The notes beneath the pieces are model-generated. The model searched no databases and was not told where the DNA came from. It saw nothing but the letters and a program-made list of their open reading frames with translations. A DNA stretch of 64,000 nucleotides from an uncultured Planctomycetales bacterium (lineage in GTDB: Bacteria; Omnitrophota; Gorgyraeia; Gygaellales; Profunditerraquicolaceae), in NCBI GenBank assembly GCA_964427405.1, contig CAYRUB010000001.1, positions 16,534 through 80,533 on the forward strand, written 5' to 3'. The stretch's first letter is position 1; every line of letters begins with the position of its first letter. Below are positions 40,031 through 62,834 of the stretch, one piece after another. Made by a program: the position numbers and the translations under genes.

Positions 40031-41305
40031 ATGAGCTCAAGGCGGATCGTAACCCATAAAGAAAAAAGAATTGTGCTTGGTAATTTTATTTCTCTTACAA
40101 CCCTCCAAACTATCAGTTATATCCTGCCTTTAGTTGTGCTTCCATACCTTGTCAGGGCAATCGGAATGGAGAAATTCGGCCTGATTGCGTTTGCTTCAAG
40201 CCTTGTGCAGTATTTCATGATTATAACTGATTACGGATTCAGCATTTCAGCAACGAAAACAATTTCGCTTATCGGCGAACATAAACAAAAGATCAGCGAG
40301 GTATTCTCTTCGGTAATGACGGTAAAGCTTATGTTTGCGGCGATAAGCTTTCTTATGCTTAGCGTTATTATATATATCGTCCCGAAATTTAAGGCGGATT
40401 GGCTGGTTTATATTTTAAGTTTCGGATCAGTAATCGGTAACACGCTGTTTCCTGTCTGGTTTTTCCAGGGAAAAGAAAAAATGAGTTATATTTCGGTAGT
40501 TAATGTAGCCGGAGGCTTAATTTATACTGTCTGCATTTTTGTTTTTATAAAAGGCCCTCAAGACTTTCTGCTAGTACCTATTTTAAATTCGCTCCTGTCG
40601 ATAATCAGCGGGGTACTCGGACTTTATATTGCCTTTAAAAAATTTCGCATTAAATTTATTATACAAAAATATGCGACTATAAAGCAGGAAATTAGGACAG
40701 GATGGGATATTTTTATTTCTATACTCTCTATCAATGCCTATACTACCAGCAGGATTTTTGCTATAGGACTCTTGACCAATAACGTGATTACGGGATATTA
40801 TTCATTGGCTGAGAAAATCGCTAACTATATCCAGACATTTCCCATGGATTCATTCACTAGAGCGGTATTTCCCCGGATCAGCAATGTTTTTGCAAAGAAC
40901 AAACAACGGGCAATAGCTATAATGTATAGGATCCAGGATGGCATTACTCTGGGTTTCGTAGTCAGCCTGCCGATTGCCTTTTTTTTAGCCCCCTGGATTA
41001 TCCAGCTGACATGCGGAGTTGCTTATAAAGAAGTAGTTATTACCTTGAGGCTTTTGCTTGCTGCAGTATTCTTTGTGGGAGCCAATAATTTCAAGGTCCA
41101 ATTTTTGCTTGTTTGCGGGAAGCAGGATCTATATGCAAAAATTCATATTAGCGCCGCGCTTATCGGTTTACCGCTTATATTTATATTAATCTATCGGTTT
41201 TCCTACATAGGAGCGGCATTTGCTACGGTGTTGATTGAGGCAGGAGTATTCGTGGTTACCTCGCTGATTGTCGAAAAACTAGCCAAGAAATTTTCAGAAA
41301 AATAA
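40031..41305 (+). CDS. Polysaccharide/oligosaccharide flippase of the MOP superfamily (Wzx-like)
   Basis: 424 aa, about 12 TM helices, with Wzx/PST-family topology. It is the only plus-strand gene in this part of the window. Confidence 0.65.
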   Translation: MSSRRIVTHKEKRIVLGNFISLTTLQTISYILPLVVLPYLVRAIGMEKFGLIAFASSLVQYFMIITDYGFSISATKTISLIGEHKQKISEVFSSVMTVKLMFAAISFLMLSVIIYIVPKFKADWLVYILSFGSVIGNTLFPVWFFQGKEKMSYISVVNVAGGLIYTVCIFVFIKGPQDFLLVPILNSLLSIISGVLGLYIAFKKFRIKFIIQKYATIKQEIRTGWDIFISILSINAYTTSRIFAIGLLTNNVITGYYSLAEKIANYIQTFPMDSFTRAVFPRISNVFAKNKQRAIAIMYRIQDGITLGFVVSLPIAFFLAPWIIQLTCGVAYKEVVITLRLLLAAVFFVGANNFKVQFLLVCGKQDLYAKIHISAALIGLPLIFILIYRFSYIGAAFATVLIEAGVFVVTSLIVEKLAKKFSEK

Positions 41306-41495: not shown

Positions 41496-42284
41496 CTACT
41501 TTTTCCTGTAAGCTTCTAAATACGAGTCGCAGTAAATATTCTTGTTTAAAATAAGCTCTGCGGTAATTAATGTATCAATGAGCTCCTTATCTTTAGGGTC
41601 AAGTATAGCAGAATCCAGCCCATATGCAACTGCCATAGTTAAAAAGGTGCGATTAATCAGGCTGCGCAGATGAGACCCCTGAGAAACATTACTTAATCCC
41701 AGGATAGTTTTAGGTTCAGGTTCAGAAATAATTTTAAATTCAGCAATAGACTCTAAAATATCCTTCATCTGCGCCTGAGCAACATTAACCGGCAAAACTA
41801 TTGGGTCTAAGTATAGATCTTCGATAGAAAAACCTTTTTCCTGGCAATTTGCCACAATAGTTGCCGCTAGCTCCAGGCGCTGATCTTTATTTTGCGGGAT
41901 TCCTTTTACGCTGATAGTAATCCCGATCAATTTAGATTTATACTGCTTAGCTAAAGGAATAAGCGCATCCAGTTTTTCTTCATCGGCAGTAGTAGAATTA
42001 ATAATTGTTTTGCTCCTGGCAACCTTTAATCCCTCTTCAATTACCGCGGGCTTACTTGAATCCAAGCAAAGAGGTTTGTCGGTAACCTCCTGGATTGTTT
42101 CAACCAGCCATGGCATATCAACTAACGGTTGTCTGGAAGCCGGCCCGCAATTAACATCTAAAGCATCCGCCCCGCAGGCGAGCTGATCCAAAGCGCTTTT
42201 CTGTATCTCCTTCTTATTGCGTTCCTTAATTGCCGCGCCTATATTAGCGTACATGCCGTTAATCAACTCACCGATAATAAACAT
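41496..42284 (-). CDS. acsE: Methyltetrahydrofolate:corrinoid/iron-sulfur protein methyltransferase (AcsE-like pterin-binding TIM barrel)
   Basis: 262 aa pterin-binding domain (LDVNCGPAS...). Confidence 0.75.
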   Translation of the reverse strand: MFIIGELINGMYANIGAAIKERNKKEIQKSALDQLACGADALDVNCGPASRQPLVDMPWLVETIQEVTDKPLCLDSSKPAVIEEGLKVARSKTIINSTTADEEKLDALIPLAKQYKSKLIGITISVKGIPQNKDQRLELAATIVANCQEKGFSIEDLYLDPIVLPVNVAQAQMKDILESIAEFKIISEPEPKTILGLSNVSQGSHLRSLINRTFLTMAVAYGLDSAILDPKDKELIDTLITAELILNKNIYCDSYLEAYRKK

Positions 42285-42309
42285 AATATATTCCTTTTTA
42301 ACCTTTATA

Positions 42310-43245
42310 CTATTTCTTAAAAAGAGTATCTATATACTTAGTAACTTTTTCAGCTGCAGCAGGATGACGCATAACTAAAAGGTCAGTCCCTGATTGTATA
42401 AGGCTGGTAGCTGTAATTATCTCCCAGGTAACACCTTGTTCGAGACTGGTTTTAGCCTCTTTTGTCCTCCAGGTCTCCTGGCCTACGAAACAAATAAACG
42501 GGGAAGCTAATGTTTTATCCCCCGATAAAGCGGCAAGCCTGGCTCTTTCCATAATGGAATAAGCATATTCAAGCCCATAACCTAAAGCCCCGATGGTTGG
42601 ATTGATTACAATCCGCTCAAGGCTTAAACCCATATCCGAGATTAGTATGTTTAATTGTTTTGCGATATTGATATCTATAGGGCTTTCGGCGATAATATTG
42701 TGGCCATCCGCCAATACGCTGGCAACCAAAGTTTTATAATTATCCTGGACCGCGCAGCCAATCAGGCAACGTTCTCCCTTAGCCGCCTCAGAGCAAGCAG
42801 GTAAAATCAGGTTATCTTTGGCATCATCGCCGCTTCCTATAATTATTAAAGGTACTTTTATCCTGGTTAAAAGCGTTGAAATAAATTTTGCTGCCTCCTT
42901 AGGACCATTATTGCCAAAATCCGGGTGTGTCCCCTGCATTCTTACGCAAAGTAATTGCGCCTTAAATTCATTTACACATTTATCGGCCCAGGCAAATGGG
43001 TCATTTAAAACTTTACCGTAAGGCAAAACCAGTTCTTCAGGCCAATCAAGCGGCGGGGTATCCCATATCTCAAAGGCAATGGCAGGCCGATTAGGGATAC
43101 TTCCTTCTTTAAATAACAATGGCAGGCTGCTCTGGCCTCCGATTCTTACCGTATTAATACGAGAACCGCCATCTTCTTTAGTTGCTCCGATAGTTAGGGC
43201 AGAAATTACACCTGCCCATTTTTCAAGCACTAATTGTGTTTCCAT
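42310..43245 (-). CDS. acsD: Corrinoid iron-sulfur protein small (delta) subunit, CdhD/AcsD
   Basis: 311 aa TIM-barrel CFeSP small-subunit family. Confidence 0.75.
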   Translation of the reverse strand: METQLVLEKWAGVISALTIGATKEDGGSRINTVRIGGQSSLPLLFKEGSIPNRPAIAFEIWDTPPLDWPEELVLPYGKVLNDPFAWADKCVNEFKAQLLCVRMQGTHPDFGNNGPKEAAKFISTLLTRIKVPLIIIGSGDDAKDNLILPACSEAAKGERCLIGCAVQDNYKTLVASVLADGHNIIAESPIDINIAKQLNILISDMGLSLERIVINPTIGALGYGLEYAYSIMERARLAALSGDKTLASPFICFVGQETWRTKEAKTSLEQGVTWEIITATSLIQSGTDLLVMRHPAAAEKVTKYIDTLFKK

Positions 43246-43982
43246 ATTTTATCTCCCAGGCAATTAAGCGCCGTCAATATCGGCGCATCTTTATTTAAAC
43301 TAAAAACTGAACCTCCGTTTAAACTTAACTCTTCAATTAACGCATCTTGCGGCAGGCTGCCAAGATACTCAAGGCCAGTTTCTTTAATTGTTTCAATTTT
43401 CACTTGCTGGCTAAAACGATTTATTAAAATGTACCTTTTTTTTACTTCAAATTTTAGCTGTAATGCCAGATCATTGATTCTTTGGGCTGATTTCAATCCC
43501 ACCCTGGTAGCATCTGAAACAACGATAAGTATATCAGCAAGACGGCTAGTGCGCCGGGATAAATGTTCCAATCCCGCTTCATTATCAATAACTATATAAT
43601 CATAATCTTTGATTAATTTGGCCATAACCGCTCTCAAAACGTTATTTACATAACAATAGCAACCCGGACCTTCGGGTTTACCCATACTCAAAATATCAAA
43701 TCCATCCTCTTCCTGGATAGCTGACTGCACCTGGTATCCTATAAAACGCTCTTTCGTCATCCCGGCAGGAACCATATCCGGATTTGCAGATATGTCATCT
43801 AAAATTTCCCCTATATTACGTCCAGGCTTCAAACCCAAAACCTCACCCAGGTTACTATTAGGATCAGCGTCTATGGCTAAAAGCGAACCGATTTTCTTTT
43901 CTTTGATATTGCGGATAATTAAAGATGCGATTGTAGTCTTGCCGGTACCCCCTTTTCCAGCCATTGCGATAATATAGCCCAT
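43230..43982 (-). CDS. cooC: CooC/AcsF-type Ni-insertion ATPase (MinD/ParA family)
   Basis: 250 aa; deviant Walker A AGKGGTGKTT. Confidence 0.85.
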   Translation of the reverse strand: MGYIIAMAGKGGTGKTTIASLIIRNIKEKKIGSLLAIDADPNSNLGEVLGLKPGRNIGEILDDISANPDMVPAGMTKERFIGYQVQSAIQEEDGFDILSMGKPEGPGCYCYVNNVLRAVMAKLIKDYDYIVIDNEAGLEHLSRRTSRLADILIVVSDATRVGLKSAQRINDLALQLKFEVKKRYILINRFSQQVKIETIKETGLEYLGSLPQDALIEELSLNGGSVFSLNKDAPILTALNCLGDKIWKHN

Positions 43983-45908
43983 TTAAAATCTCACCGTAGG
44001 AAACTTTGTCAAATCCGTATGCGGGAAAAATAGCGCCTGGCTGTATTCATCCATATAACCCGGGTCAACAGATAATTCAAAATAGGTAATTTTAGAAGCA
44101 AGGGTATTTGCCATAACCATGGCCTGGTTTGATAAAAGAATCTGGCTGGCACCTGCTAAGGCGCTGTTCCCGATAAAGACAAATTTAGAACGCGCGAGAT
44201 CCGGCAATAACCCGATTTTTATCGCCTTCTCTATATCCAGATAAGTTCCGAAACCCCCGGCGATAAATATTTTAGAGATTTCGGAAAATTGCAAACCTAA
44301 ATGTTTAACCAGGATAGCGGTAGCGGAATATATCGCAGCTTTTGAACGTTTAAGATTTTCAATATCCGCCTCATTAATCACGATATCCGATAAGCTATCG
44401 GTCTCTTCTTTGAAACAAACCACAAACTCTTTGCCGGTATCTGTTTGGCGAATACGCCTTCCTTCAGTTTTTATTTTACCGCCCTTATCAATTATTCCGG
44501 TTTCTAACATTGCGCTGAGTAAATCAATATAGCCCGAACCGCAGATCCCCCGCGGCTTTTTATCGCCAATAGTGGAGTATTTAACGTTAAAATCAGTTTT
44601 ATTCATACTTATCTTTTGAATTGCCCCGTTGCTTGCGCGCATACCGCTGGTTACTCCGCTGCCTTCAAAAGCCGGACCGGCAGAAGCAGCACAAGCAACC
44701 AGAAAATCTTTATTGCCTAAAACAATCTCTCCATTAGTACCGATATCAATCAGTATGCAAAGCTCGTCCTTTAGATATATGCCGCTAGAGAGAACTCCGG
44801 CAGTAGTATCCCCGCCAACGTAGCTGGAAACTCCCGGCACGCATGAAAGCAGCCCTCTAGGATTAATATTTATTCCCGCTTCTGCCGCGCGCAAAACGGG
44901 CAGGAAATTTGCCGTAGGCACATAAGGTTCTTTACGGATATGCGCCGGATCAACGCTTAGAAGCAAATGGATCATTGTAGTGTTCCCTGAACAGACAATG
45001 CAATTAACATCATTTAAATCAACATTGTTTTCCAGGATTAGCTCGCGGATTATCTGGTTCATCGTATTACAAACAGCCTCATGCAATTTCTCTAATCCGT
45101 CACTCTGTCCGGCATAAACTATGCGCGTAATTACATCATTACCAAAAGTAGCCTGTTGATTATAAGTTGCCTTTGTCCCCATAACCTTTTTTGAATTTAA
45201 ATCTAACAGTTGACCGGAAATTGTAGTTGTACCAATGTCAAAACTAAGCCCAAAATTCCTATCCGTCGTATCTCCTGACTCAACCAGGACAATTTCTACT
45301 GTATCATTGCGCTTGCCTAATGTAACAGTAACCTTCCATTCAGAATCACGCAATAGTTCACCCAACTGGCGAATATTAAATAATCCAGTTTGTATCACAG
45401 GAAATTCCTCAAAACCGCGTAAAGCACGATATAGCCTCTCCAAATCACTTACGCTGTCATTAAGTGTCGGAGCAGGTAATTCCAGATATAATTTTGTGGC
45501 AAAAGGTGAATGCTTAAAAAAACCTTCTTTAAATTTTGTTTTTACCGGCTGGATATCCTCCGCTTTTGAATAAAGGCTGCCTAAACGTTCCCCTAATTCC
45601 AGGGGAGTAAGATTATCAAAATTAAGCCGTGAACTCTCGGGAATCTCAACCTCTAAATCACTATGAATATTTGTAAGACAGCCAAGATATATATTATTTT
45701 TCCTTTCTTCCGCCGTAATTATTCCATTAGGCTGGGTACTAACCTGGCCCTTCCTAAGGACAACCTTGCATCTTCCGCAAACTCCATCTCCGCCACAAAC
45801 AGAATTAACATACACTCCGGCAGAGATGGCAGCAGAAAGGATCGTCTTATCCTTCTCGACAAGTATTGACTTATTATCCGGCAGAAATGTGACTTTGAAT
45901 TTTTGCAT
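43983..45908 (-). CDS. Reductive activator of corrinoid Fe-S protein (RACo; 2Fe-2S ferredoxin plus ASKHA ATPase)
   Basis: 641 aa; N-terminal plant-type ferredoxin Cys cluster (CGGDGVCGRCKV) followed by an ASKHA-fold domain. Confidence 0.8.
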   Translation of the reverse strand: MQKFKVTFLPDNKSILVEKDKTILSAAISAGVYVNSVCGGDGVCGRCKVVLRKGQVSTQPNGIITAEERKNNIYLGCLTNIHSDLEVEIPESSRLNFDNLTPLELGERLGSLYSKAEDIQPVKTKFKEGFFKHSPFATKLYLELPAPTLNDSVSDLERLYRALRGFEEFPVIQTGLFNIRQLGELLRDSEWKVTVTLGKRNDTVEIVLVESGDTTDRNFGLSFDIGTTTISGQLLDLNSKKVMGTKATYNQQATFGNDVITRIVYAGQSDGLEKLHEAVCNTMNQIIRELILENNVDLNDVNCIVCSGNTTMIHLLLSVDPAHIRKEPYVPTANFLPVLRAAEAGININPRGLLSCVPGVSSYVGGDTTAGVLSSGIYLKDELCILIDIGTNGEIVLGNKDFLVACAASAGPAFEGSGVTSGMRASNGAIQKISMNKTDFNVKYSTIGDKKPRGICGSGYIDLLSAMLETGIIDKGGKIKTEGRRIRQTDTGKEFVVCFKEETDSLSDIVINEADIENLKRSKAAIYSATAILVKHLGLQFSEISKIFIAGGFGTYLDIEKAIKIGLLPDLARSKFVFIGNSALAGASQILLSNQAMVMANTLASKITYFELSVDPGYMDEYSQALFFPHTDLTKFPTVRF

Positions 45909-45925
45909 AGATTAGAGAACCATGA

Positions 45926-47257
45926 TTAGTTTAGGTTTTTTAAAAACGCGGGGATCCCTGCTGCTTCCTTGGGACCTACGATCACCTTAAATCCAGATTG
46001 TTCTTCGAGATCACCGCTTAATACCGCTACATAACCCGGAATAATTAAATTCTTATGACTTACCGCATCCTTAACCCCAAACTTATCTAATGATTTAGTA
46101 ATGGATTCGGCGTTAAATTTTTCCGCAGCCCAGGCAGTAAGCACAGACATGCCCTCAGTATCCACGCTTAAAATATAAGAAGGTATTTTACTGGCTTCCA
46201 CTTCGCCTAAGACAGTATAATAACTCAAAGAAAAGTTAGTGGTTATCAAGACCGGTGATTTTTCAGTAGCCCCACCCACAGGATAAAGCTTGGGTTCAAT
46301 TTGCAAAGGTTTTTGCGGGTCAGTATAAATATTTTGTCTGAAGGTTAAAATCGCCAGTACCTCCCAAGAATCAACCCCCTTGATCAGGACAATCCCCGCA
46401 TATTTAGCGATGTAGGCAGTTGCCTCCATCGCCTCCTCATAGGAATCATTTTTATCTACAATGGCCAGACTGGGATAACCCAGCGGCCGGTTTGATTTCT
46501 TAAGCGCTTGCCGGCGGAGTTGAGTTAAATCCCATATTTTATCGGTAACAGATTTTGTGCCGGTATCTAAAATCAGGTCGTGTACCCCCAACGAGTTAAG
46601 CTCTTTGGACAGCTGCGCAAGGGTATCAATATCCTGCGCAACTACCACTAAAGGAAGTTGGAATTCTTTGGCAATAGGCGCGATTTGGCTGAAATTATCT
46701 TTTGTCGCGCAGTAAAGCAAAGGTCTACGCGATTTGGCGATAGCTGCCGCCTGTCTTAAAGCAATCAGATCATTGCTCATTAGCATAACCGGCAGGACAG
46801 TATTACTTAAAACTAACCTGGTCGTTTCCATGAATCTTTTTGCGTCCGTATTTTGTTTTATGGCAACAAGATTCACTTCCAACAACTGGCCTACGCGTTC
46901 AAACTTCAACTGATTAATCTTTTCAATCCGCTTCCTTATATCAATGTCAGACAGATTATCCTCAATAATAAAACCTAAGCCTGCCGGATTACGGAATTTC
47001 TCTTCGTGCCTGAACATTACCGTTTCATTGCCAAGTTCAAGTTTTGAATCATCGCTGCCTAAAGTTACAAGCTTAATCGGAGGCAATGCTTGTTCCTCCA
47101 GGATAGCCTTTGACTCAGCCGAAATATAAGGACATTTTTCGATTGGCAGTGTTTTTTTAGCTAACTGCATCGCAAAGGCAAGGCAGGTAGCCAGGCCGCA
47201 CTTGCGGCAATTTGTCTTAGGCAGCAACTTATAAATATCTAAACCAGAAAATGCCAT
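45926..47257 (-). CDS. acsC: Corrinoid iron-sulfur protein large (gamma) subunit, CdhE/AcsC
   Basis: 443 aa; N-terminal 4Fe-4S Cys motif (CRKCGLATCLAFAMQLA), TIM barrel, and a C-terminal B12-binding domain. Confidence 0.85.
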   Translation of the reverse strand: MAFSGLDIYKLLPKTNCRKCGLATCLAFAMQLAKKTLPIEKCPYISAESKAILEEQALPPIKLVTLGSDDSKLELGNETVMFRHEEKFRNPAGLGFIIEDNLSDIDIRKRIEKINQLKFERVGQLLEVNLVAIKQNTDAKRFMETTRLVLSNTVLPVMLMSNDLIALRQAAAIAKSRRPLLYCATKDNFSQIAPIAKEFQLPLVVVAQDIDTLAQLSKELNSLGVHDLILDTGTKSVTDKIWDLTQLRRQALKKSNRPLGYPSLAIVDKNDSYEEAMEATAYIAKYAGIVLIKGVDSWEVLAILTFRQNIYTDPQKPLQIEPKLYPVGGATEKSPVLITTNFSLSYYTVLGEVEASKIPSYILSVDTEGMSVLTAWAAEKFNAESITKSLDKFGVKDAVSHKNLIIPGYVAVLSGDLEEQSGFKVIVGPKEAAGIPAFLKNLN

Positions 47258-53680: not shown

Positions 53681-55110
53681 AGCCGTGGTTTAATTTTATG
53701 CCAATCTGTATTCTGTTCAAAAGCATGGGCAACCTTAAAAAGCATCTCTTCATTAAATGGTTTAGCCATAATTTGTAATCCTATCGGAAGTCCATTTTTG
53801 GTAAACCCGCAGGGAATAGATATCGCCGGAATTCCCGCTAAATTCACCGATATAGTATATATATCTGAAAGATACATTTTCAAGGGATCGGCCGCCTTCT
53901 CGCCTATTTTAAAGGCAGGAGTAGGTGAAGTAGGCGCAACGATACAATCAAAATCTTTAAACACCGCGTCAAAATCATTTTTTATCAGAGTGCGCACCTT
54001 TAAAGCGCGTAAATAATAAGCATCATAGTAACCATGCGACAAAGCAAAAGTTCCTAAAATTATTCTGCGTTTAGCTTCCTCCCCGAATCCTTCCGCACGG
54101 GTCTTCTTATACATATCAATAAGACTGTCTGATTTAGCGCGGTAACCGTATTGCACCCCGTCAAACCTGGCTAAATTCGAGCTGGCTTCGGCAGTAGCAA
54201 TAATGTAGTAAACCGGAACAGCATATTGCGTATGCGGTAAGGTTACCTGATGTGAAATAGCCCCTAGAGATTTGAGTTTATTTATGGCTTCTTCAATAAC
54301 AGATTTGACCTCTGTATCCATACCATCAATAAAGTACTCTTTAGGTATGCCGATTTTTAAACCTTTAATCTCCTTGCCCAAACTGTCAGTATAATCCGGC
54401 ACATCCTGGTTTACTGAAGTTGAATCATTGGGGTCATAACCCGAGATGATCCGGGTTAATATTGCCGCATCTTCTACGTCCTTGGTTATCGGGCCAATCT
54501 GATCAAGGCTGGAAGCAAAAGCAATTAATCCAAAACGCGAAACACGTCCATAAGTAGGCTTTAACCCTACTACGCCGCAAAAAGACGCGGGCTGGCGTAT
54601 TGAGCCTCCCGTATCCGAACCTAGTGCCCAAATCGCTTCATCACTGGTCACAGCAGCAGCCGAGCCTCCCGAAGAACCACCGGGAACATATTCTAAATTC
54701 CAGGGGTTATGCGTTGCGCCAAAATATGAGTTTTCTGTAGATGAACCAAAGGCAAATTCATCCATATTTGCTTTTAATGGAAAAATACTGCTGCCGGCTG
54801 TTTTTAATTTATTAATAACCGTTGCATCATATGGCGGGCGAAAATTATTAAGAATTTTTGAACAGCATTCCGTATTTAATCCTTCGGTACAAATATTATC
54901 TTTAATGGTTATAGGTAATCCAGCCAGCAGACCATCGGCCTGCGGGTTTAAACTGAGTTTATTGCCGGATTTAAACCTGGCATAAGCCTTAACCTTAGGT
55001 TCAACTGCCTGTATGCGCGCATAAAGCGAATCCAGGATAACCTTAGAGGTAACTTGATGATTCTTAAGCTTATCTAGTAATTCGTGGGCAGTGAGTTGAT
55101 TTAAATCCAT
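53677..55110 (-). CDS. gatA: Glutamyl-tRNA(Gln)/Asp-tRNA(Asn) amidotransferase subunit A
   Basis: 477 aa; amidase signature [11 protein letters not shown]. Confidence 0.95.
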
Positions 55111-55112
55111 AG

Positions 55113-55400
55113 TTATTCTATTATTTTTGGGACACTGAAGAAATTCCCATTTCTGCTTGGGGCATTTTCAAGAGCCTTATCCGGGGTTAAACAAACACGC
55201 GGCTCATCCTCCCGCAAAACATTACTTACAGGTAAGATATGGCTAGTAGGTTTAACAAGCCCTACATCCAGAACACTTAGCTTATCGATAAAACCCATTA
55301 TATCATGCAATTGCTGGGATAGTTTCTCTAACTCTTCAGGTTGTAGTTCGATACGCGCTAAATGCGCAACATATTTAACTGTTTCTTTATCTATTGCCAT
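55113..55400 (-). CDS. gatC: Amidotransferase subunit C
   Basis: About 95 aa from [19 protein letters not shown]; the track ORF extends 11 codons upstream. Confidence 0.85.
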
Positions 55401-55472
55401 ATTCCTCCTCGTATTAAGGAAATATATTAACATCCTTTATCTCAAAAGTCAATGAGCACTTGCCCTTTTAAG

Positions 55473-55500
55473 TTGACAAAGCAAATAAAACCTGTAAAAT
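55473..55500 (+). promoter_or_regulatory. Sigma-70-type promoter for the 1066-aa gene (-35 TTGACA, 16-nt spacer, -10 TAAAAT with upstream TG)
   Basis: TTGACA at 55473-55478 and TAAAAT at 55495-55500, 25 nt upstream of the ATG at 55525. Confidence 0.5.
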
Positions 55501-55524
55501 ATTACTAATTAACTTTTACTCTAA

Positions 55525-58500
55525 ATGAATAAAAATACCTCTAAATTAAAATCAAAATATTATTTAAACAAACAAGGCCAGTTCGTTATTGAAAACTATA
55601 ACTACTCCAAGCCTTTTGCCAATTTCTTCCCGGGGATTGCCGGAAAATACGGTATTCCTATGTGGGTTTTCTACGTTAACCGCGGACAATGCATTTCCAG
55701 TTTTGGAATTAAAGATAAGGACCAGGCTATCCTGGAGTTCTTCCCGGCAAATAAATCCTGGCAGTTCGTTTCTTCCCAGGGGTTCCGCACCTTTATTAAA
55801 ATCAAAACCGCAAAGGGGCCGCTTTACTATGAGCCTTTCCATAATGGTTATGTGAACCTGAAATACCAAATAACCAATTCTATGCGCATAGGCTCAAGCC
55901 AGCTTATCATAGAGGAAGAGAATCGCAGTTTGGGGATCAGGACCCGCGTAGAGTATTTTAACATACCTAATGACGCTTATGCAGGCTTAAGCCGTATAGT
56001 AAGCGTTGAGAATACCGGAAACAAACATAAATCCATACAGCTTATTGATGGATTACCACAAGTCGTCCCTTTCGGCACACATAATTTCTTTTTAAAAAAA
56101 CTCGGCCGGACTATTGAAGCCTGGATGAATATTGATAACTTAGAGAATGATATCCCCTTTTATAAACTTGAGGTTGACCCTGCTGATCGTCCCGAAGTGG
56201 TACACATTGATGGAGGGAATTTTTACCTGGGGTTTCATTTCAAGGGCAGCAAAGCAGAACTCATCCGGCCCATTGTTGACCCCGAAGCTGTTTTTGGCGC
56301 AGTAACTGATTTCTCTTACCCCGCACAATTCCTGGCTAACTCCAAATTTTTATATCCCGTAAAACAAATGACTAAAAGCAAGACTCCCAGCGCACTGCTT
56401 TTAATGGACCTGGAATTAAAACCAAGGGAACAAAAAACATTTTATTCAGTAATCGGCCAGGCGCGCAATGTTAAAACCTTAAATACTTCAGTGCCTAAAA
56501 TTACCAGGTATGGCTACATAGAGAAAAAACTGGATGAAAATCTTGAGCTTATCCGCAGGCTAAAAGACGGCATTTTAACTAACAGCAGTTCCAACGAATT
56601 CAATTTATACGCCGGACAAACTTATTTGGATAATATTATGCGGGGAGGATATCCTGAGATTTTTAAATCCGGGTTGGTATTTTATCTTTATTCGCGCAAA
56701 CATGGTGATTTGGAAAGAGATTACAATAAGTTTCAGTTACAGCCGACCTATCTTTCCCAGGGTAACGGCAACTACAGGGATATAAATCAGAACCGGCGTA
56801 ATGATTGCTGGTTTAATCCTGAGGTAAAAGATGAAAATGTAATCTTTTTTATGAACTTGCTTCAGGTTGACGGCTTTAACCCTCTGGTAGTAAAACCTGA
56901 TAGTTTCCTGCTTAAAGAAAACCTTGATTTATATAAACTGCTTGAGGCAATAACCGATAAAAACGATATTAATAAGCTCGACCTTTACTTAAAAAAACCA
57001 TTTACCCCGGGAGAGTTAATCTTCTTCATTGAGGAAAACAAGATAAAGCTCAATATTTCCTATGATAATTTTCTGGATATGATCCTCTCCTCTGCCTTAA
57101 AAACACAAGAAGCAGAGCACGGAGAGGGATTCTGGACTGACCACTGGACTTATAATTTAGACTTGATTGATAGCTACCTGGGAATTTACCCGGAGAAGTT
57201 TAACGAATTATTTTTTGAGAAAAAAGTTTTCTCTTTTTACGATAACGCTGAGTTAGTCAGGCCGCGCAGTGAAAGATACATGCTCTATAACGGCAAGCCC
57301 CGGCAATTGCACTGCCTTATGCTTGATAGCGCAAAGAAAGAAATGTTGCGTAAACGCACAAATAACCCGCACACCTTAAGAACACAGCACGGCATCGGAG
57401 AAATTTACTATACTACGCTTATTGCCAAGCTTTTATGTCTTGCGGCTAATAAACTGGCTTCCCTGGATCCTTTTGGCATTGGGATTGAAATGGAAGCCGG
57501 TAAACCGAATTGGTTTGATTCTCTCAACGGCCTACCTGCGCTCTTTGGTTCATCGACCTGCGAAACCTTTGAGCTTAAACGCCTGCTCGGAATGATAAAA
57601 CTGGCTTTAGAGAAATCACAAGCTAATGAGATTGAACTTGCTGAAGAAATCGCTAAATTTATTCAACAACTCTCTATTATCTTTCCTGAAGAAAGCTTTT
57701 CCTACTGGGACAAAAGCAATACATTAAAAGAAGATTACCGCATGAATAGCCGCTTTGGTTTCTCCGGTATTTCAGTATATATGCAAACCAAAGAATTAAT
57801 CTCTTTCATAAATACTGCCTTAGGAAAGGTTGAAGCTGGTATAGGCAAAGCCTTTAATAAAACACAAGGCACTTACAATTCATATTTTATTAACGAAGTC
57901 GTTGAATTTGATCTGATTAAAGATCACTACATAAAACCTAAGAAATTTGCGCAAAAGCCTGCCCCATTATTCCTGGAGGGACAAATGCATGCGCTGAGAT
58001 TATCCCAAGATACTAAGCAAGCTTTTGATATTTATAAAGCAACCAGGAAAAGCGCGCTTTTTGATAAGAAATTACGCATGTATAAGGTAACTGCCCCGCT
58101 TGATAGTATGCCGGAAGAAATCGGCAGGTGCCGGATATTTACCCCTGGGTGGCTGGAAAATGAATCCATCTGGCTACATATGGAATATAAATACATGCTG
58201 GAGCTGCTTAAAACCGGCCTGATTAAAGAATTTTATTCGGAATTTAAAAACGTGCTTATTCCTTTCCAGGATCCTCAAAAATATGGCCGCAGTATTTTAG
58301 AAAACTCATCTTTTCTGGTAAGCAGCGCTTTCCCGGATAAGAACTTGCACGGCAATGGCTTTGTGGCCAGGCTTTCAGGCTCAACCGCAGAATTCCTGCA
58401 AATCTGGTTGATTATGAATGCCGGCACCAACCCATTTTATTTGGATAACAACAGGCAGCTTAATTTAACCTTTAAACCATATTTGCCGGGTTGGTTATTT

Positions 58501-58725
58501 AACCGAAAAGGAGAATATTCCTTTAATTTCTTAAGCTCAATCCAGATAACTTACCATAACCCCAAAAGAAAAGATACCTTTGGGAAAAACAACGCAAAGG
58601 TATCTAAAATAACTCTTTTTGAAAACGGTAACCCCATAGAGTTTAATTCCGCAACTATCCCTTCAGTCTTCGCTCAGAAAATAAGGTCTCGTCAGATTAA
58701 TAAAATCGATATTTATCTAGAATAA
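55525..58725 (+). CDS. Large uncharacterised protein (1066 aa), possibly a glycoside hydrolase/phosphorylase-like (alpha/alpha)6-barrel enzyme (GH94/GH65-like) - a weak call
   Basis: Long intact ORF with no signal peptide. The N-terminal region resembles the beta-sandwich start of GH94-type phosphorylases. A GNGNYRDINQN segment is reminiscent of the GDWND catalytic region. No confident family assignment was possible by eye. Confidence 0.45.
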   Translation: MNKNTSKLKSKYYLNKQGQFVIENYNYSKPFANFFPGIAGKYGIPMWVFYVNRGQCISSFGIKDKDQAILEFFPANKSWQFVSSQGFRTFIKIKTAKGPLYYEPFHNGYVNLKYQITNSMRIGSSQLIIEEENRSLGIRTRVEYFNIPNDAYAGLSRIVSVENTGNKHKSIQLIDGLPQVVPFGTHNFFLKKLGRTIEAWMNIDNLENDIPFYKLEVDPADRPEVVHIDGGNFYLGFHFKGSKAELIRPIVDPEAVFGAVTDFSYPAQFLANSKFLYPVKQMTKSKTPSALLLMDLELKPREQKTFYSVIGQARNVKTLNTSVPKITRYGYIEKKLDENLELIRRLKDGILTNSSSNEFNLYAGQTYLDNIMRGGYPEIFKSGLVFYLYSRKHGDLERDYNKFQLQPTYLSQGNGNYRDINQNRRNDCWFNPEVKDENVIFFMNLLQVDGFNPLVVKPDSFLLKENLDLYKLLEAITDKNDINKLDLYLKKPFTPGELIFFIEENKIKLNISYDNFLDMILSSALKTQEAEHGEGFWTDHWTYNLDLIDSYLGIYPEKFNELFFEKKVFSFYDNAELVRPRSERYMLYNGKPRQLHCLMLDSAKKEMLRKRTNNPHTLRTQHGIGEIYYTTLIAKLLCLAANKLASLDPFGIGIEMEAGKPNWFDSLNGLPALFGSSTCETFELKRLLGMIKLALEKSQANEIELAEEIAKFIQQLSIIFPEESFSYWDKSNTLKEDYRMNSRFGFSGISVYMQTKELISFINTALGKVEAGIGKAFNKTQGTYNSYFINEVVEFDLIKDHYIKPKKFAQKPAPLFLEGQMHALRLSQDTKQAFDIYKATRKSALFDKKLRMYKVTAPLDSMPEEIGRCRIFTPGWLENESIWLHMEYKYMLELLKTGLIKEFYSEFKNVLIPFQDPQKYGRSILENSSFLVSSAFPDKNLHGNGFVARLSGSTAEFLQIWLIMNAGTNPFYLDNNRQLNLTFKPYLPGWLFNRKGEYSFNFLSSIQITYHNPKRKDTFGKNNAKVSKITLFENGNPIEFNSATIPSVFAQKIRSRQINKIDIYLE

Positions 58726-58726
58726 G

Positions 58727-61597
58727 TTAAAATTTGCGGCGGTAATAAGCGCGGATAATATGCTGAGTATCCAAGGTGAGCATGCTGCCACCATACGGAT
58801 CCAGAGAAGACATGTTACCAAGAGAACTGGTATCTCCTACCCCATACTGCAGACTAAATTCATCGTCTTTTGATGGCATATACCTAAACTCACTGAAAAA
58901 ATTATGATGCCCTACAACACCATCCGTAAGAACGTAATCCGTACCATTATAAACAATATCTTTACACCGGGAGTAAATATATTTAAATGACATGCCAATT
59001 TTTTCAGTAGGCATATAGGTAACTTCCATCCCCATATGGTTCATATTGTCGTTAATTAAGGAAGCGGTTTCATATTCATTACGCGTATAATCAAGATAAA
59101 TTTCCATATTTTTCATCGGGGTAATCCGCAAACCCGTCTTAAAAACATTGTAAAAATCATAGGGAGCCTGAGGAAAGATCCCTTGCCCATAAAGAAACGG
59201 CGCAACACTGCTATAATAATTACCATTCTGATAATAACGCCCGTATAAAGATGTATCATCCCTTAAGATATTCTGGGGGAAATTACCATAAGCTAATGTA
59301 TAATCATTTGTGCGTTCATATACGCCGTTTAAACTTAACCAATCAAAGAAATCATAATTTAAACCTAATGAACCGGTTTTAATCGAAGGATCTTCCCCGT
59401 CAGGAACAGCGGCATTTGCAAGAAATTCCCCTGTTGAGCCGTCATAGATATACGGGTCAATCCCGCCTACGGTTTTAGGCATCTTCTGATAAATACCAAG
59501 AACCTTAGCGGTTAATTTATCCGTTACCTTTACCGTCGCCTCATCGCGCACCACATTCTCGGTGAATTTACCGTTAACATTATGCACATTACGCATGTCA
59601 AAAAGGTTGTAGAATCTGTCTTCCAGGAAAGTTTCAATGCGAAAACCTAAAGTATTCCTGCCCACATCAATACCATCGCCGATACGCGTGGAATTAAGCT
59701 CATCCCAATTGGTATTAGATCCTTTTAAACCTTGAGAGTAATAATCCATGGGCTTACGGAAATGTATATGCCTTGACCAAAAAACATCCTGGCGGCTGTT
59801 ATGAAAATCAGAAAGAGCTGAATCAAAACCCTTATCCATACGGCTGGCATAAAACTTACTCTTAACCAGGAATGTTTCATCTTTAGCCAGCGCTATTTCA
59901 TCATAACCATACTTTAAATCCATAATGCTTTGCTGCGGATAACGCGTAATAAAAGAAAAATAATACGCATTCCCGCGGGATTCGGTCTCGTAAGTCGAAT
60001 TAGTCATATCGTAATTAGACTTAGAGGTAAGGATCTCTGCCTGGGCCTTTAAGCCATCCGCGATTTCATAGCCTAAATCAATGCCTCCTACAAAATTCTG
60101 ACTATCCAGTTTTTGCGGATCGGTTTTATACCCTAAACGGGAGGTAAAGGTACCTCCAAGCATAAAATTATCCGCAAATTTATGTTTTAGGCGACTGGCA
60201 GTAATTAAATTATCTGCTACATCGTAATCCTGCCAAAGAGTCTTAGGCGTAGCTACGGTAGTATCGAAGGTTGTAGATTCCTGCGGCTGTAAACTGAAGG
60301 AAAAACCGCGCAAAGCGGTAAGGTATCTTCCAGTGCTGTCCTTCGAAATAAATGAAAGCGAATCATCCCAATAGCCCTTCGTAAAGGTAGCCGGATTTGA
60401 AAAATCTCCGGCATGATATACTCCCGAAGTATAGGAACGCAACCACTTACTATCCTTCCACCATATTCCGTGGTTACTTATATTTAGCGGATCATCAGAA
60501 GTATAAGCCTGGTCCTGATAAGCCATTGGGAAGGCGCGAAACTTAACCGTATCATTAGTATAATCCAGCCATAACTCGCGGATCGGCTGGAACTGCATAT
60601 CAATATCGGATTCCGGAATACTGTATCCTGAAACGGTAGTGGCAGCCACCTTACCTTTTACAACTTTTAACTCCGGGAGGTTCAGCGCAGCGCCATAAAT
60701 ACCGCTGTAATAAGTATGGTTTAAAGTATAGCCTGTATTTGACCAATACAATAACTGGATATCCGCAGTATCCGCACCATCGCCTACAGTCATCTTGCTA
60801 CTTTTACCAGTAAAGCTCCAGGGATCTACGGTAATATTCGCATGGAAGTTAAATCCTTTTTCATTTTCAGTATCTAAATTAATGCTCAGTGAATCATATA
60901 TAGCGGGATCGTAAGTATTAAAGCCTCGATTATAGGCGGAGGTCGACAACATACGCCAGCTAAAGAATTTTTCATTTAAATCAAAGTTAGCCCGCTTCCA
61001 AATAAAATCATTAGAAGTAACTCCGAAGCTAACCTGCATTTCCCCGCTTATTCTTAATGGCCCAGCCTTTATGCCTTTTTTCTCATCTTTTTTCTTTACG
61101 CTTTTATCCGAAGAATCTTTAGCAGTGTAAGCAGGAATCCAGGTTGCCTCCTCCGCGCTCTTTGAATTATTGAGCGCCTGTTCCATAGCCTCTTCTTTTG
61201 ATAATACAGGTTTCTCGGCTTTTGATAATACAGGTTTCTCTACTTGTGCAACCAATGGTGCTTCTTGCGCTTTCTGCGCTATGTGCTCCTGCGCCAATAT
61301 CACGGGTTTCAGGGGAGGCAAAGATTTAGCTATTACAGGATCATCTTTATAGCCCAAATCCCCGTTAAATATTTTATTGATATAATCTTTGGCTTGCTGA
61401 TTATTGGGATCAATTAAGAGAACCTTAGTAAATTCCGAAAGGGCATCGTCAAGCTTACCTTGGATATAAAAAGTCTTTCCCAGCTCGCAAAGATAATCTA
61501 CTTCCAGATTTTGGCTAAAGGCAGGAGTGGCGCTTAAAAAAATAAGCGCTAAAAAAACTAGCGCCATAGTTTTATATATATAAGTTTGCTTACTCAT
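58727..61597 (-). CDS. Large outer-membrane protein: signal peptide, N-terminal TPR, Pro/Lys-rich repeat linker, and a big beta-rich (putative beta-barrel) domain ending in a C-terminal Phe
   Basis: 956 aa; signal peptide ...ATPAFSQ; TPR-like N-terminus; Tyr/Gly/Asp/Asn-rich alternating segments; C-terminus ...YYRRKF, consistent with the beta-barrel assembly signal. Confidence 0.55.
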   Translation of the reverse strand: MSKQTYIYKTMALVFLALIFLSATPAFSQNLEVDYLCELGKTFYIQGKLDDALSEFTKVLLIDPNNQQAKDYINKIFNGDLGYKDDPVIAKSLPPLKPVILAQEHIAQKAQEAPLVAQVEKPVLSKAEKPVLSKEEAMEQALNNSKSAEEATWIPAYTAKDSSDKSVKKKDEKKGIKAGPLRISGEMQVSFGVTSNDFIWKRANFDLNEKFFSWRMLSTSAYNRGFNTYDPAIYDSLSINLDTENEKGFNFHANITVDPWSFTGKSSKMTVGDGADTADIQLLYWSNTGYTLNHTYYSGIYGAALNLPELKVVKGKVAATTVSGYSIPESDIDMQFQPIRELWLDYTNDTVKFRAFPMAYQDQAYTSDDPLNISNHGIWWKDSKWLRSYTSGVYHAGDFSNPATFTKGYWDDSLSFISKDSTGRYLTALRGFSFSLQPQESTTFDTTVATPKTLWQDYDVADNLITASRLKHKFADNFMLGGTFTSRLGYKTDPQKLDSQNFVGGIDLGYEIADGLKAQAEILTSKSNYDMTNSTYETESRGNAYYFSFITRYPQQSIMDLKYGYDEIALAKDETFLVKSKFYASRMDKGFDSALSDFHNSRQDVFWSRHIHFRKPMDYYSQGLKGSNTNWDELNSTRIGDGIDVGRNTLGFRIETFLEDRFYNLFDMRNVHNVNGKFTENVVRDEATVKVTDKLTAKVLGIYQKMPKTVGGIDPYIYDGSTGEFLANAAVPDGEDPSIKTGSLGLNYDFFDWLSLNGVYERTNDYTLAYGNFPQNILRDDTSLYGRYYQNGNYYSSVAPFLYGQGIFPQAPYDFYNVFKTGLRITPMKNMEIYLDYTRNEYETASLINDNMNHMGMEVTYMPTEKIGMSFKYIYSRCKDIVYNGTDYVLTDGVVGHHNFFSEFRYMPSKDDEFSLQYGVGDTSSLGNMSSLDPYGGSMLTLDTQHIIRAYYRRKF
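61189..61236. repeat. Perfect 24-bp tandem duplication inside the OMP gene (encodes EKPVLSKA/EKPVLSKE)
   Basis: CTTTTGATAATACAGGTTTCTC(G/T)G appears twice in tandem. Confidence 0.8.
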
Positions 61598-61689
61598 AGT
61601 TGTTAATATTATATATAAAACTATAATTATGTCAATAAAAAAACCAGGCGATATAGCTACCTGGCTAGAAATTGAATACTAGGTATAAA

Positions 61690-62028
61690 TTAACCGACCT
61701 GTTCGCTTAATTTCTCATTAGCGGTAAGCTGGATACTTAGGGTATGCACAAAGACAACAAGAAAAAATTTGCCTTTATTTACCGCCAGTAAACTGCCCTT
61801 GATCTTACAGAAGAAATGTTCCCGTTTTTGCCTGGTATTTCTTTCTTTTAAAACATATAAATACGGGGTCGGTTTTACGACGTCGGCTTTTTCAACCTGC
61901 TTTATCATGCAGGCAAAATGCCGGCGAACCACACTGTGCACGCCCTCCTTATCCGTTATCTCGGAGCTGGCGATTACCCTGCGGCTTCTATCGGCGGATG
62001 TCAAATTCTTATACAGTAGATCACGCAT
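61690..62028 (-). CDS. Hypothetical small basic protein (112 aa); weak coding call
   Basis: It is the only ORF of 100 aa or more in a 600-bp gap between the OMP gene and plsY. It has no motif I recognise, and the SD context is unclear. Confidence 0.3.
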   Translation of the reverse strand: MRDLLYKNLTSADRSRRVIASSEITDKEGVHSVVRRHFACMIKQVEKADVVKPTPYLYVLKERNTRQKREHFFCKIKGSLLAVNKGKFFLVVFVHTLSIQLTANEKLSEQVG

Positions 62029-62192
62029 ATTTACCTTAAACTAGCTGGATTGCCAATCGGCAACCCAGCTCTCCTCCTTTAGCTAGTGGGGATGATAGTT
62101 TTATTCACTATAATTATGCAATCAAAAAAAGGCCATTTCAATAGGAAAAGGCCTTAAAAAGAAAGCGCTTACTTTAATTGTCGACGGAAAAA

Positions 62193-62834
62193 TTAATTCT
62201 TGGGTTTTTTAAAATACAGGCGGGGTTCCTTGCCTTGCGCTAGTCTCAAAAGGTTAGCCTTGTGCCGGATAATCACAAAAAAGCATAATATTAAACTAAC
62301 AATCAATAAAATACCGGATTGCTTAAAGAAGAAAACGGAAACTGGCAGGGCTATTGCAGCAACAATTGAGGCCAAGGAAACTATCCGCCAGATCATGAAA
62401 ATTGTTAACCAGGTTAAGACCAAAATACCAATTACCACGCCTAATCCGGGTAATTTTAACGCCAGACCAAGTAATACGCCAAAACTAGTTGCTATACCTT
62501 TACCACCTTTAAACCTAAGGAAAATAGTCCAATTATGCCCACAGATGGAACATAAACCCATGATAATACGTAAGTTATGCTCCTGCCATAAAATAGGTTT
62601 ACCGCTAAAATAGTCTCCTAAGAAAACAACCACTACGAAACCTTTAAGAATATCTAACAATAAAACCGTAATTCCCGCCCCTTTCCCCAAGACACGCATG
62701 GCATTAGTAGCGCCAATGTTGCCTGAGCCGGCCTTACGTATATCAACACCCTTGAGTATCTTACCAAAAAGATAAGCTGTGGGTATTGATCCTATTAAAT
62801 AACTAGCTGCTAATGCGACGGTTATCCAGAGCAT
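62193..62834 (-). CDS. plsY: Glycerol-3-phosphate acyltransferase PlsY
   Basis: 213 aa; GSGNIGATN motif; polytopic. Confidence 0.9.
   Translation of the reverse strand: MLWITVALAASYLIGSIPTAYLFGKILKGVDIRKAGSGNIGATNAMRVLGKGAGITVLLLDILKGFVVVVFLGDYFSGKPILWQEHNLRIIMGLCSICGHNWTIFLRFKGGKGIATSFGVLLGLALKLPGLGVVIGILVLTWLTIFMIWRIVSLASIVAAIALPVSVFFFKQSGILLIVSLILCFFVIIRHKANLLRLAQGKEPRLYFKKPKN

Follow-up and report, generated by a model that had tools for sequence, protein, structure and literature searches.

Recurrent linkage of a predicted GH161 phosphorylase with a very large outer-membrane β-barrel in Omnitrophota, a candidate β-1,3-glucan module

Results and discussion

Two large genes that converge in a 64-kb stretch of contig CAYRUB010000001.1 (hereafter the window, meaning the whole of the DNA analysed) encode proteins of 1066 and 956 aa. 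From its sequence, the first is a full-length GH161 glycoside phosphorylase, and the second, an outer-membrane protein (OMP) referred to below as the barrel, is modelled as a very large outer-membrane β-barrel without a close solved or curated relative. Genes of both families recur together in related genomes, in different contexts and orientations, and the pair of the window looks like a reduced form of a conserved Omnitrophota module for β-1,3-glucan. Given the consistency of this linkage, the barrel probably provides the outer-membrane component of a system for handling β-glucan. That it serves, more specifically, as the outer-membrane conduit of a system for the uptake of β-1,3-glucan is the explanation that we propose, tentatively, since in our judgement it falls a little short of an even chance of being right.

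A predicted GH161 phosphorylase

A first-pass annotation of this DNA had described the 1066-aa protein as poorly characterised and as bearing a weak resemblance to glycoside phosphorylases of the GH94/GH65 type. Comparison with PDB sequences rendered a full-length match to a characterised family with solved structures: residues 16-1064 aligned with 9qqk_A, labelled 'GH161A' (E=6.8e-237, 792 bits), and residues ~16-1064 with 9h8v_A (E=2e-236). The GH94 structure 6ggy was matched at E=0.59, and the NCBIfam model of GH149 gave 110 bits, below its cutoff of 1150. No Pfam family model matched the protein, and a weak STK_08120-like match was dismissed. As judged from these alignments, the protein is a GH161 glycoside phosphorylase over its full length, distinct from both GH94 and GH149, and it adds an ordinary member to an enzyme family already known. 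GH161, GH94 and GH149 together make up clan GH-Q (PMC6484121), so that the earlier proposal of a GH94 relative was right at the level of the clan, but GH65 lies outside it.

The catalytic loop reads N662-W-F-D665-SLNG, in which W663-F-D665 aligns with W-Y-D of 9qqk, and other blocks of the family are also kept, namely RGGYP (373-377), SRKHGDLERDYN (390-401), GWLENES (875-881), ENSSF (926-930) and RLSGST (949-954). The catalytic Asp of THA_1941 (D625) sits in a W-x-D loop, and roles have been given to further residues of that enzyme (preprint 10.1101/2025.04.05.647330); Arg and Ser residues of the window protein may correspond one to one to the known sugar- and phosphate-binding residues. The family was founded on PapP, a β-1,3-glucan phosphorylase from Paenibacillus polymyxa whose phosphorolysis requires a degree of polymerization of at least 3 (PMC6484121), and THA_1941 is active down to laminaribiose and accepts glucose as a primer. 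For the window enzyme the predicted substrate is β-1,3-glucan or laminari-oligosaccharides. It has neither a signal peptide nor an N-terminal hydrophobic segment and is therefore cytoplasmic, as had been annotated.

Full-length homology, motifs and cytoplasmic location are thus shared with PapP, with THA_1941/TaCDP of Thermosipho africanus and with the proteins of PDB entries 9qqk, 9sr2 and 9h8v. The window gene differs from known GH161 genes in being a single gene with a promoter to itself, surrounded by housekeeping genes and convergent on an OMP gene, and in that GH161 is a near-core gene of an Omnitrophota clade.

A very large outer-membrane barrel

All the elements that had been listed for the 956-aa protein in the first-pass annotation (a signal peptide, an N-terminal tetratricopeptide repeat (TPR), a Lys/Pro-rich linker with repeats and a β-rich domain ending in Phe) are present, and their positions are given in Table 1. 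The signal peptide, MSKQTYIYKTMALVFLALIFLSATPAFS followed by Q, ends at a cleavage site of the signal-peptidase-I type between AFS and Q. The TPR matched Pfam TPR_1/TPR_2 (residues 34-66) at E~9e-5, under the gathering score, and a consensus TPR in the PDB at E=2.7e-12; its helices (29-45, 49-62 and 67-77) were modelled by AlphaFold2 at a predicted local distance difference test score (pLDDT) of ~90. The ~95-residue linker, in which Lys, Ala and Pro account for 16%, 13% and 8.5% of residues 80-185, contains a tandem EKPVLSK repeat, EKPVLSKAEKPVLSKEE, has a pLDDT below 50 over residues 82-172, and is predicted to be periplasmic. It is followed by a β domain of ~780 residues, 15.5% of them aromatic, with small inserted β modules at ~262-336, 388-411 and 779-802, and the chain terminates in ...YYRRKF.

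A first AlphaFold2 model, made from close homologues (mean identity 62%), had a pLDDT of 57 and was superseded by a second one, made from a mixed alignment of both subfamilies described below (A and B; 41 sequences, 26-87% identity), with a pLDDT of 75.9, a predicted TM-score of 0.71 and 326 residues at a pLDDT of at least 90. In this model 27 long amphipathic strands span residues 181-955, in keeping with a closed barrel of antiparallel strands, and the alternation of hydrophobicity in the predicted strands exceeded that of all 1000 shuffles. Of the 41 diverse family members, at least 90% have the terminal Phe, as does every distant member inspected. Two motifs of the protein, DPWS and QxQALTSDDP...W..S.WL, are likewise invariant. 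The protein carries both a Sec signal peptide and a C-terminal β-signal ending in Phe, as substrates of the β-barrel assembly machinery (BAM) do, and genomes related to that of the window encode BamA and the lipid A pathway. The structure model, the fold searches and the invariant Phe support the original guess of an outer-membrane β-barrel, and a soluble β-propeller, which was also considered, is not what the model shows.

Searches of Pfam, NCBIfam and the PDB with sequences and profiles recognised only the TPR in the barrel protein; weak matches to DDE_Tnp_1_7 and Amuc_1098 were either noise or confined to the TPR. Very large outer-membrane barrels are known in LptD and MtrB (26 strands), in the ushers PapC and FimD (24) and in Deinococcus SlpA (30). 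Three described types were rejected as the identity of the window protein. A TonB-dependent transporter of the SusC kind was discarded because neither Pfam nor NCBIfam gave a Plug or TonB_dep_Rec match and Foldseek TM-scores to such transporters were only 0.21-0.26; LptD, because the OstA/LptA-like N-terminal β-jellyroll and the C-terminal LptD family signature are lacking; and an exporter such as BcsC, PgaA, PelB or AlgE, because the long TPR superhelix, the 16-18-strand barrel and the co-located synthase are lacking.

The family comprises 459 clusters (at 90% identity) at E<1e-3, and its profile retrieves 124 clusters (at 50% identity) at E<1e-30. Relatives were found in 250 species-representative genomes, essentially all labelled Omnitrophota or automatically labelled metagenome-assembled genomes (MAGs). 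All close homologues are from MAGs of Candidatus Omnitrophota; among those with a name UBA6253 is the nearest, with an OMP that is 86% identical. By this sampling the barrel family is restricted to Omnitrophota, a phylum of abundant, uncultured bacteria, most of them ultra-small, about whose nutrition and envelope little is understood. Identity is at least 59% among the 120 best-matching 90%-identity clusters. Some members have large N-terminal additions (P0191, of 2721 aa, P0181, P0274 and P0319); in one of them the addition is a right-handed β-helix/NosD module of ~1960 aa with CarboxypepD_reg and SdrD_B domains, in an autotransporter-like layout, and in other members a small barrel of the Pom type (Protochlamydia OMP) lies N-terminal to the large one. 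No description of the barrel family, or of a link of GH161 and GH158 in Omnitrophota, was found in the literature.

Linkage of the barrel to β-glucan enzymes

The family is divided into two deep subfamilies with ~30% identity between them: A, that of the window, has the TPR, and its loci average ~43% G+C, whereas B is without the TPR, and its loci average ~54% G+C. In subfamily B the genomic context is different, the barrel gene being placed inside a same-strand operon. Genes for sugar ATP-binding cassette (ABC) permeases (in at least 6 loci) are followed there by those for a GH2-like protein of 656 aa, which is exported, p204, a GH158-like TIM-barrel enzyme of ~410 aa, also exported, a protein with a PilZ domain, a cytoplasmic GH116 β-glucosidase and the barrel, after which come exported β-sandwich proteins (u459, p205/207, p274 and p960) and then GH161, accompanied in 3 loci by a convergent GH94 gene. 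The best solved relative of the GH158-like enzyme is PDB 9oro, labelled 'GH158' (E=7.8e-12), and GH158 is a family of endo-β-1,3-glucanases. The composition of this operon is highly regular: where 9.5 kb or more of sequence follows the barrel gene, GH161 is there on the same strand (9 of 9 loci), and the genes upstream of the barrel include that of the PilZ protein in each of 15 loci, that of the GH158-like glucanase in each of 12, and GH116 in 17 of 19.

In three loci (L006, L102 and L104) the start of the GH161 gene lies only 0-18 nt from the end of the barrel gene, one base being shared in L006, the GH161 of which is 47% identical to the window enzyme. Moreover, in-frame fusions of GH116 to the barrel occur in three distinct clusters of proteins (P0172, P0296 and P0308; see also L006 3188-7717). 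The signal peptide of the barrel is retained internally in these fusions and GH116 itself has none, which suggests that translation starts internally or that the internal signal sequence can be cleaved; in L007 the GH116 and barrel genes are separate, 2 nt apart. A third arrangement was found in L066, where an A-like barrel gene is followed by genes for an ABC permease, a GH2-like protein, p204 and a GH158-like glucanase. The recurrence in subfamily B, the fusions and the arrangement of L066 indicate that the barrel family has been tied repeatedly, and independently, to enzymes for the breakdown of β-1,3-glucan and β-glucosides.

With regard to subfamily A, the block lepA-lepB-pgsA-plsY-orf112-OMP-GH161-gatCAB, with the GH161 gene on the opposite strand, is collinear throughout, down to 44% identity of the OMP. 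Of the 60 window-type loci whose sequence extends 3.5 kb or more past the OMP gene, 56 have GH161, and in L079 and L082 it has been retained despite the insertion of 2-7 kb of other genes after the OMP gene. The arrangement in L079 is an intermediate one (plsY-orf112-OMP-u459-p274-p960, then the convergent GH161).

It could be argued that the two genes of the window are functionally unrelated, the barrel being a general or major OMP or a factor of envelope biogenesis, and GH161 an unrelated housekeeping enzyme of glucan metabolism. The window-type OMP gene is found among the envelope genes lepB, pgsA and plsY, and in another lineage the barrel gene follows an envelope cluster as well (bamA-skp-lpxD-lpxC/fabZ-lpxA-lpxI). 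The very high sequence conservation of the barrel, the separate promoters of the convergent genes, and the consensus promoter and near-leaderless start of the OMP gene (see below), suggestive of high constitutive expression, also point in this direction. On the other hand, GH161 recurs with a subfamily of only ~30% identity, in another context and orientation and with the genes directly abutting, the third arrangement brings in a GH158-like glucanase and an ABC permease, GH116 is fused to the barrel, and a terminator-like hairpin separates plsY from the unit formed by orf112 and the OMP gene. We regard the lack of any functional link as quite unlikely.

Proposed function and alternatives

In the scheme that we put forward, the full module would comprise ABC permeases, a GH158-like glucanase, a PilZ protein with one transmembrane helix and a periplasmic domain, GH116, the barrel, β-sandwich proteins and GH161, with or without GH94. 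The barrel would be exported by Sec and then inserted by BAM by means of its C-terminal Phe signal. The exported GH158-like enzyme, to be sought elsewhere in the genome of the window if it is present at all, would fragment β-1,3-glucan; the fragments would cross the outer membrane into the periplasm through the barrel and would be moved to the cytoplasm by the ABC transporter. There GH161, using phosphate, would release glucose 1-phosphate from the non-reducing end of the β-1,3-gluco-oligosaccharides, and GH116 or GH94 would process the remaining disaccharide. The assignment to GH161, the barrel-type fold, the restriction to the phylum and the recurrence of the linkage are established by the data, and the substrate, the direction of transport and the action of the barrel itself as the channel are what we infer here. 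The catabolic logic proposed matches that of GH161 loci in other bacteria, with which the sister operon shares a β-glucosidase, GH94 and sugar ABC permeases (PMC6484121).

A likeness is also found to the β-1,3-glucan loci of Bacteroidota (SusC/SusD with GH158, GH16 and GH3), which have in common with the Omnitrophota loci an exported glucanase of GH158 type, β-sandwich accessory proteins, a large barrel and exo-acting enzymes. Unlike those loci, the ones described here have a barrel without the Pfam signature of a TonB-dependent receptor or plug and without a SusD partner; its N-terminus is a TPR with a disordered linker, the operon includes a PilZ membrane protein, and cytoplasmic GH161/GH94 phosphorylases take the place of a periplasmic GH3. 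By analogy, the system resembles a polysaccharide utilisation locus in which a giant barrel, unclassified and specific to the phylum, takes the outer-membrane position.

Several observations weigh against the uptake of β-1,3-glucan through the barrel. Passive sugar porins are far smaller than a barrel of ~26 strands, and neither a plug nor a TonB box was identified in the protein. The exported proteins that accompany the barrel (u459, p205/207, p274 and p960) could be its real clients, and a PilZ partner is more typical of systems for the export of exopolysaccharides. Genes for an ABC sugar transporter, for a GH158-like enzyme and for GH116 are all missing from the 64-kb window. Since the whole block from lepA to gatB is collinear, the adjacency of the two genes within subfamily A is by itself weak evidence. 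Finally, in six loci (L014, L021, L028, L036, L040 and L043) the barrel gene comes after bamA-skp-lpxD-lpxC/fabZ-lpxA-lpxI, and in L014, whose sequence alone among the six extends far downstream, GH161 is absent within 10 kb. In these lineages, where it also follows a radical SAM gene, the barrel gene is the sole one of the family detected and its product is 62-73% identical to that of the window; the two contigs that continue, those of L014 and L021, have exported β-sandwich genes after the barrel, in the order u459-217-205-p274-p960 in L014.

If the accompanying exported proteins (u459, two proteins of ~205 aa, p274 and p960) were the clients, the barrel would be a translocon or assembly platform similar to that of ushers or autotransporters, forming a surface fibre or adhesin, and the proximity of the glucan enzymes would reflect the binding or harvesting of glucan by this structure, or would have no mechanistic cause. 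Searches with the PilZ protein, u459 and p274 against PDB and Pfam profiles gave nothing significant, only coiled-coil and faint Fn3/Ig-like matches; the matches to pilus components were all below significance (EcpB, E=0.74; Pam pilin, E=1e-3), and neither Usher nor PapD was matched in Pfam. Ushers have a plug inserted in their 24-strand barrel, a periplasmic domain at the N-terminus and two at the C-terminus, and a PapD-like chaperone encoded nearby, whereas the barrel of the window extends to the last residue; the two are distantly analogous at best. In ~90% of the window-type loci, that of the window included, the barrel is strongly conserved with no exported client-type gene beside it (u459 is found in 4 of 71). 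p960 carries SdrD_B and CarboxypepD_reg domains, and P0191 was considered as a possible fusion of p960 to the barrel; this was rejected, since the two have only the SdrD_B repeats in common. A translocon deserves to be kept in mind, but we consider it unlikely.

The PilZ protein bears on two further possibilities. It has ~640 aa (L007 5899-7848; L006 1366-3186), its gene is always the second one before that of the subfamily-B barrel, and it consists of a cytoplasmic PilZ domain, one transmembrane helix, a coiled coil of ~100 aa and a C-terminal periplasmic domain. The latter is very highly conserved and gave a weak hint of an alpha/alpha toroid, with no relative found in the PDB or Pfam. Synthase-dependent exporters of exopolysaccharides that have TPRs and a barrel include BcsC, PgaA and PelB, as well as AlgK/AlgE, which works with the PilZ protein Alg44. 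By analogy with BcsC, PgaA, PelB and AlgE, the barrel might export a β-glucan exopolysaccharide made by the cell, in which case the PilZ protein would be an Alg44-like receptor of cyclic diguanylate (c-di-GMP), and the GH158-like, GH116 and GH161 enzymes would trim or recycle the polymer, or GH161 would synthesise it. The conserved module contains no glycosyltransferase or synthase gene in ~110 loci, and the operon includes permeases of sugar ABC importers together with several catabolic enzymes. The TPR amounts to only ~1.5 repeats and is missing from the sister subfamily, and the barrel, of ~26-27 strands, greatly exceeds in size those of known exporters, the chains of which have 290-451 residues. 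Export of a self-made glucan is for us distinctly improbable, and the lack of a synthase in every gene cluster, together with the catabolic nature of the partner enzymes, makes uptake the better bet. Thus, from the earlier suggestion of a function in glycan processing and export, comparative genomics upholds the link of both genes to glycans and favours uptake over export.

It can also be the case that the barrel, the exported β-sandwich proteins and the PilZ protein, sensing c-di-GMP, together form an undescribed Omnitrophota machine that spans the envelope and handles β-1,3-glucan, a new class of uptake or secretion system different from Sus/TonB systems, porins and synthase-dependent exporters, in which GH161 and GH94 would harvest, or conceivably build, the glucan. 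We hold this to be unlikely; were it true, the interest of the locus would rise sharply. Irrespective of this, the near-core pairing of GH161 with the barrel and the fuller operon point to the handling of β-glucan as a trait central to the phylum, and the locus is a testable candidate for outer-membrane transport of glucan in diderms outside Bacteroidota and Proteobacteria. The barrel family is, in addition, a new and well-conserved target for structural study of large outer-membrane barrels.

Organization and transcription of the locus

The coordinates, sizes and convergence that had been annotated for the two genes proved exact, with a single base (58726) between the stop codons (Table 1). 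Nearly all the genes of the window are on the minus strand; the GH161 gene is, as claimed, alone on the plus strand in its region, and there is only one other long plus-strand gene in the whole window, at 40031-41305.

Table 1. Features of the GH161/OMP locus, in window coordinates
Feature	Coordinates	Strand	Basis or remark
Promoter of GH161 gene, sigma-70 type, TTGACA-16-TAAAAT	55473..55500	+	11/12 consensus matches
Predicted GH161 gene	55525..58725	+	1066-aa open reading frame (ORF)
OMP (barrel) gene	58727..61597	-	956-aa ORF
Predicted β-barrel domain, residues 176-956, and stop codon	58727..61072	-	~26-27 long amphipathic strands
Disordered Lys/Ala/Pro/Glu-rich linker, residues 78-175	61073..61366	-	AlphaFold2 pLDDT, composition
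TPR module, residues 29-77, three helices, ~1.5 repeats	61367..61513	-	Pfam, PDB, AlphaFold2
Signal peptide, residues 1-28	61514..61597	-	hydrophobicity maximum at residues 5-28
Promoter of OMP gene, sigma-70 type, TTGACA-16-TATAAT	61608..61635	-	12/12, perfect consensus
orf112, conserved 112-aa protein directly 5' of OMP gene	61690..62028	-	tblastn, codon-position variability

Both genes have a promoter of the sigma-70 type. Sites with at least 11 of 12 consensus positions number 5 on the two strands of the window, as compared with 1.5 +/- 1.3 in Markov simulations, and the promoters of the GH161 and OMP genes are two of them. In the case of GH161 there are 24 nt from the end of the -10 hexamer to the ATG, and the leader, of ~16 nt, has no Shine-Dalgarno sequence ahead of the start. 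Among 50 related loci, 48 have a promoter with at least 10 of 12 matches 5' of GH161, those reaching 11/12 being placed mostly at ~23-24 nt from the start, so that the good promoter attributed to this gene is indeed kept among relatives. The -10 hexamer of the OMP gene is only 10 nt from the ATG, so that its mRNA should be leaderless or nearly so; among 65 related loci, 51 have a promoter with at least 11 of 12 matches 5' of this gene, and the distance is mostly 10-11 nt (L008-L087; 51 species). No intrinsic terminator was detected between the convergent gene ends or nearby (58700-58760). With a gap of 1 bp, no terminator and two strong promoters, transcripts of each gene must enter the coding region of the other, and antisense transcription or transcriptional interference is possible.

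The GH161 gene is neighboured by gatC, gatA, gatB, a gene for a CtpA-like S41 peptidase, a divergent polysaccharide deacetylase gene and tsaD, and the OMP gene by orf112, plsY, pgsA and lepB, and therefore the core genes that had been noted at the flanks, gatCAB on one side and plsY on the other, are both there. A terminator-like hairpin with a U-run stands directly 3' of plsY, in the plsY-orf112 intergenic region (62029-62192, minus strand), and because of it plsY and gatCAB are probably bystanders of the GH161/OMP pair.

In most window-type loci the OMP gene is preceded by a tblastn match to orf112, with 43-95% identity. The 61 complete ORFs extracted show a variability of 0.25/0.17/0.48 at the three codon positions, the pattern of a coding sequence, and a conserved N-terminus, MRDLLxKNLTSxD; Pfam gave no match to the product. 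A trace of orf112 was also found 5' of the barrel gene in L040, one of the loci in bamA-lpx context, so that orf112 may accompany the barrel rather than plsY and may belong to the same functional unit as the OMP gene. The plsY-orf112 intergenic region has a folding z-score of -3.6 and includes, just 5' of the orf112 start, a perfect 12-bp hairpin, AGCUGGGUUGCC-GAUU-GGCAAUCCAGCU. Rfam rendered no RNA family in positions 55000-62400, the structured leader of orf112 included.

The other long plus-strand gene, at 40031-41305, encodes a Wzx-like polysaccharide flippase (Polysacc_synt, E=1e-53). At 41496-47257 on the minus strand lie genes of the Wood-Ljungdahl pathway and acetyl-CoA synthase, encoding corrinoid protein subunits of the CdhD/AcsC/AcsD type, a RACo activase and a pterin-binding methyltransferase. 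This Wood-Ljungdahl set of the window (acsC, acsD, acsE and RACo) indicates an acetogen-like member of the Omnitrophota.

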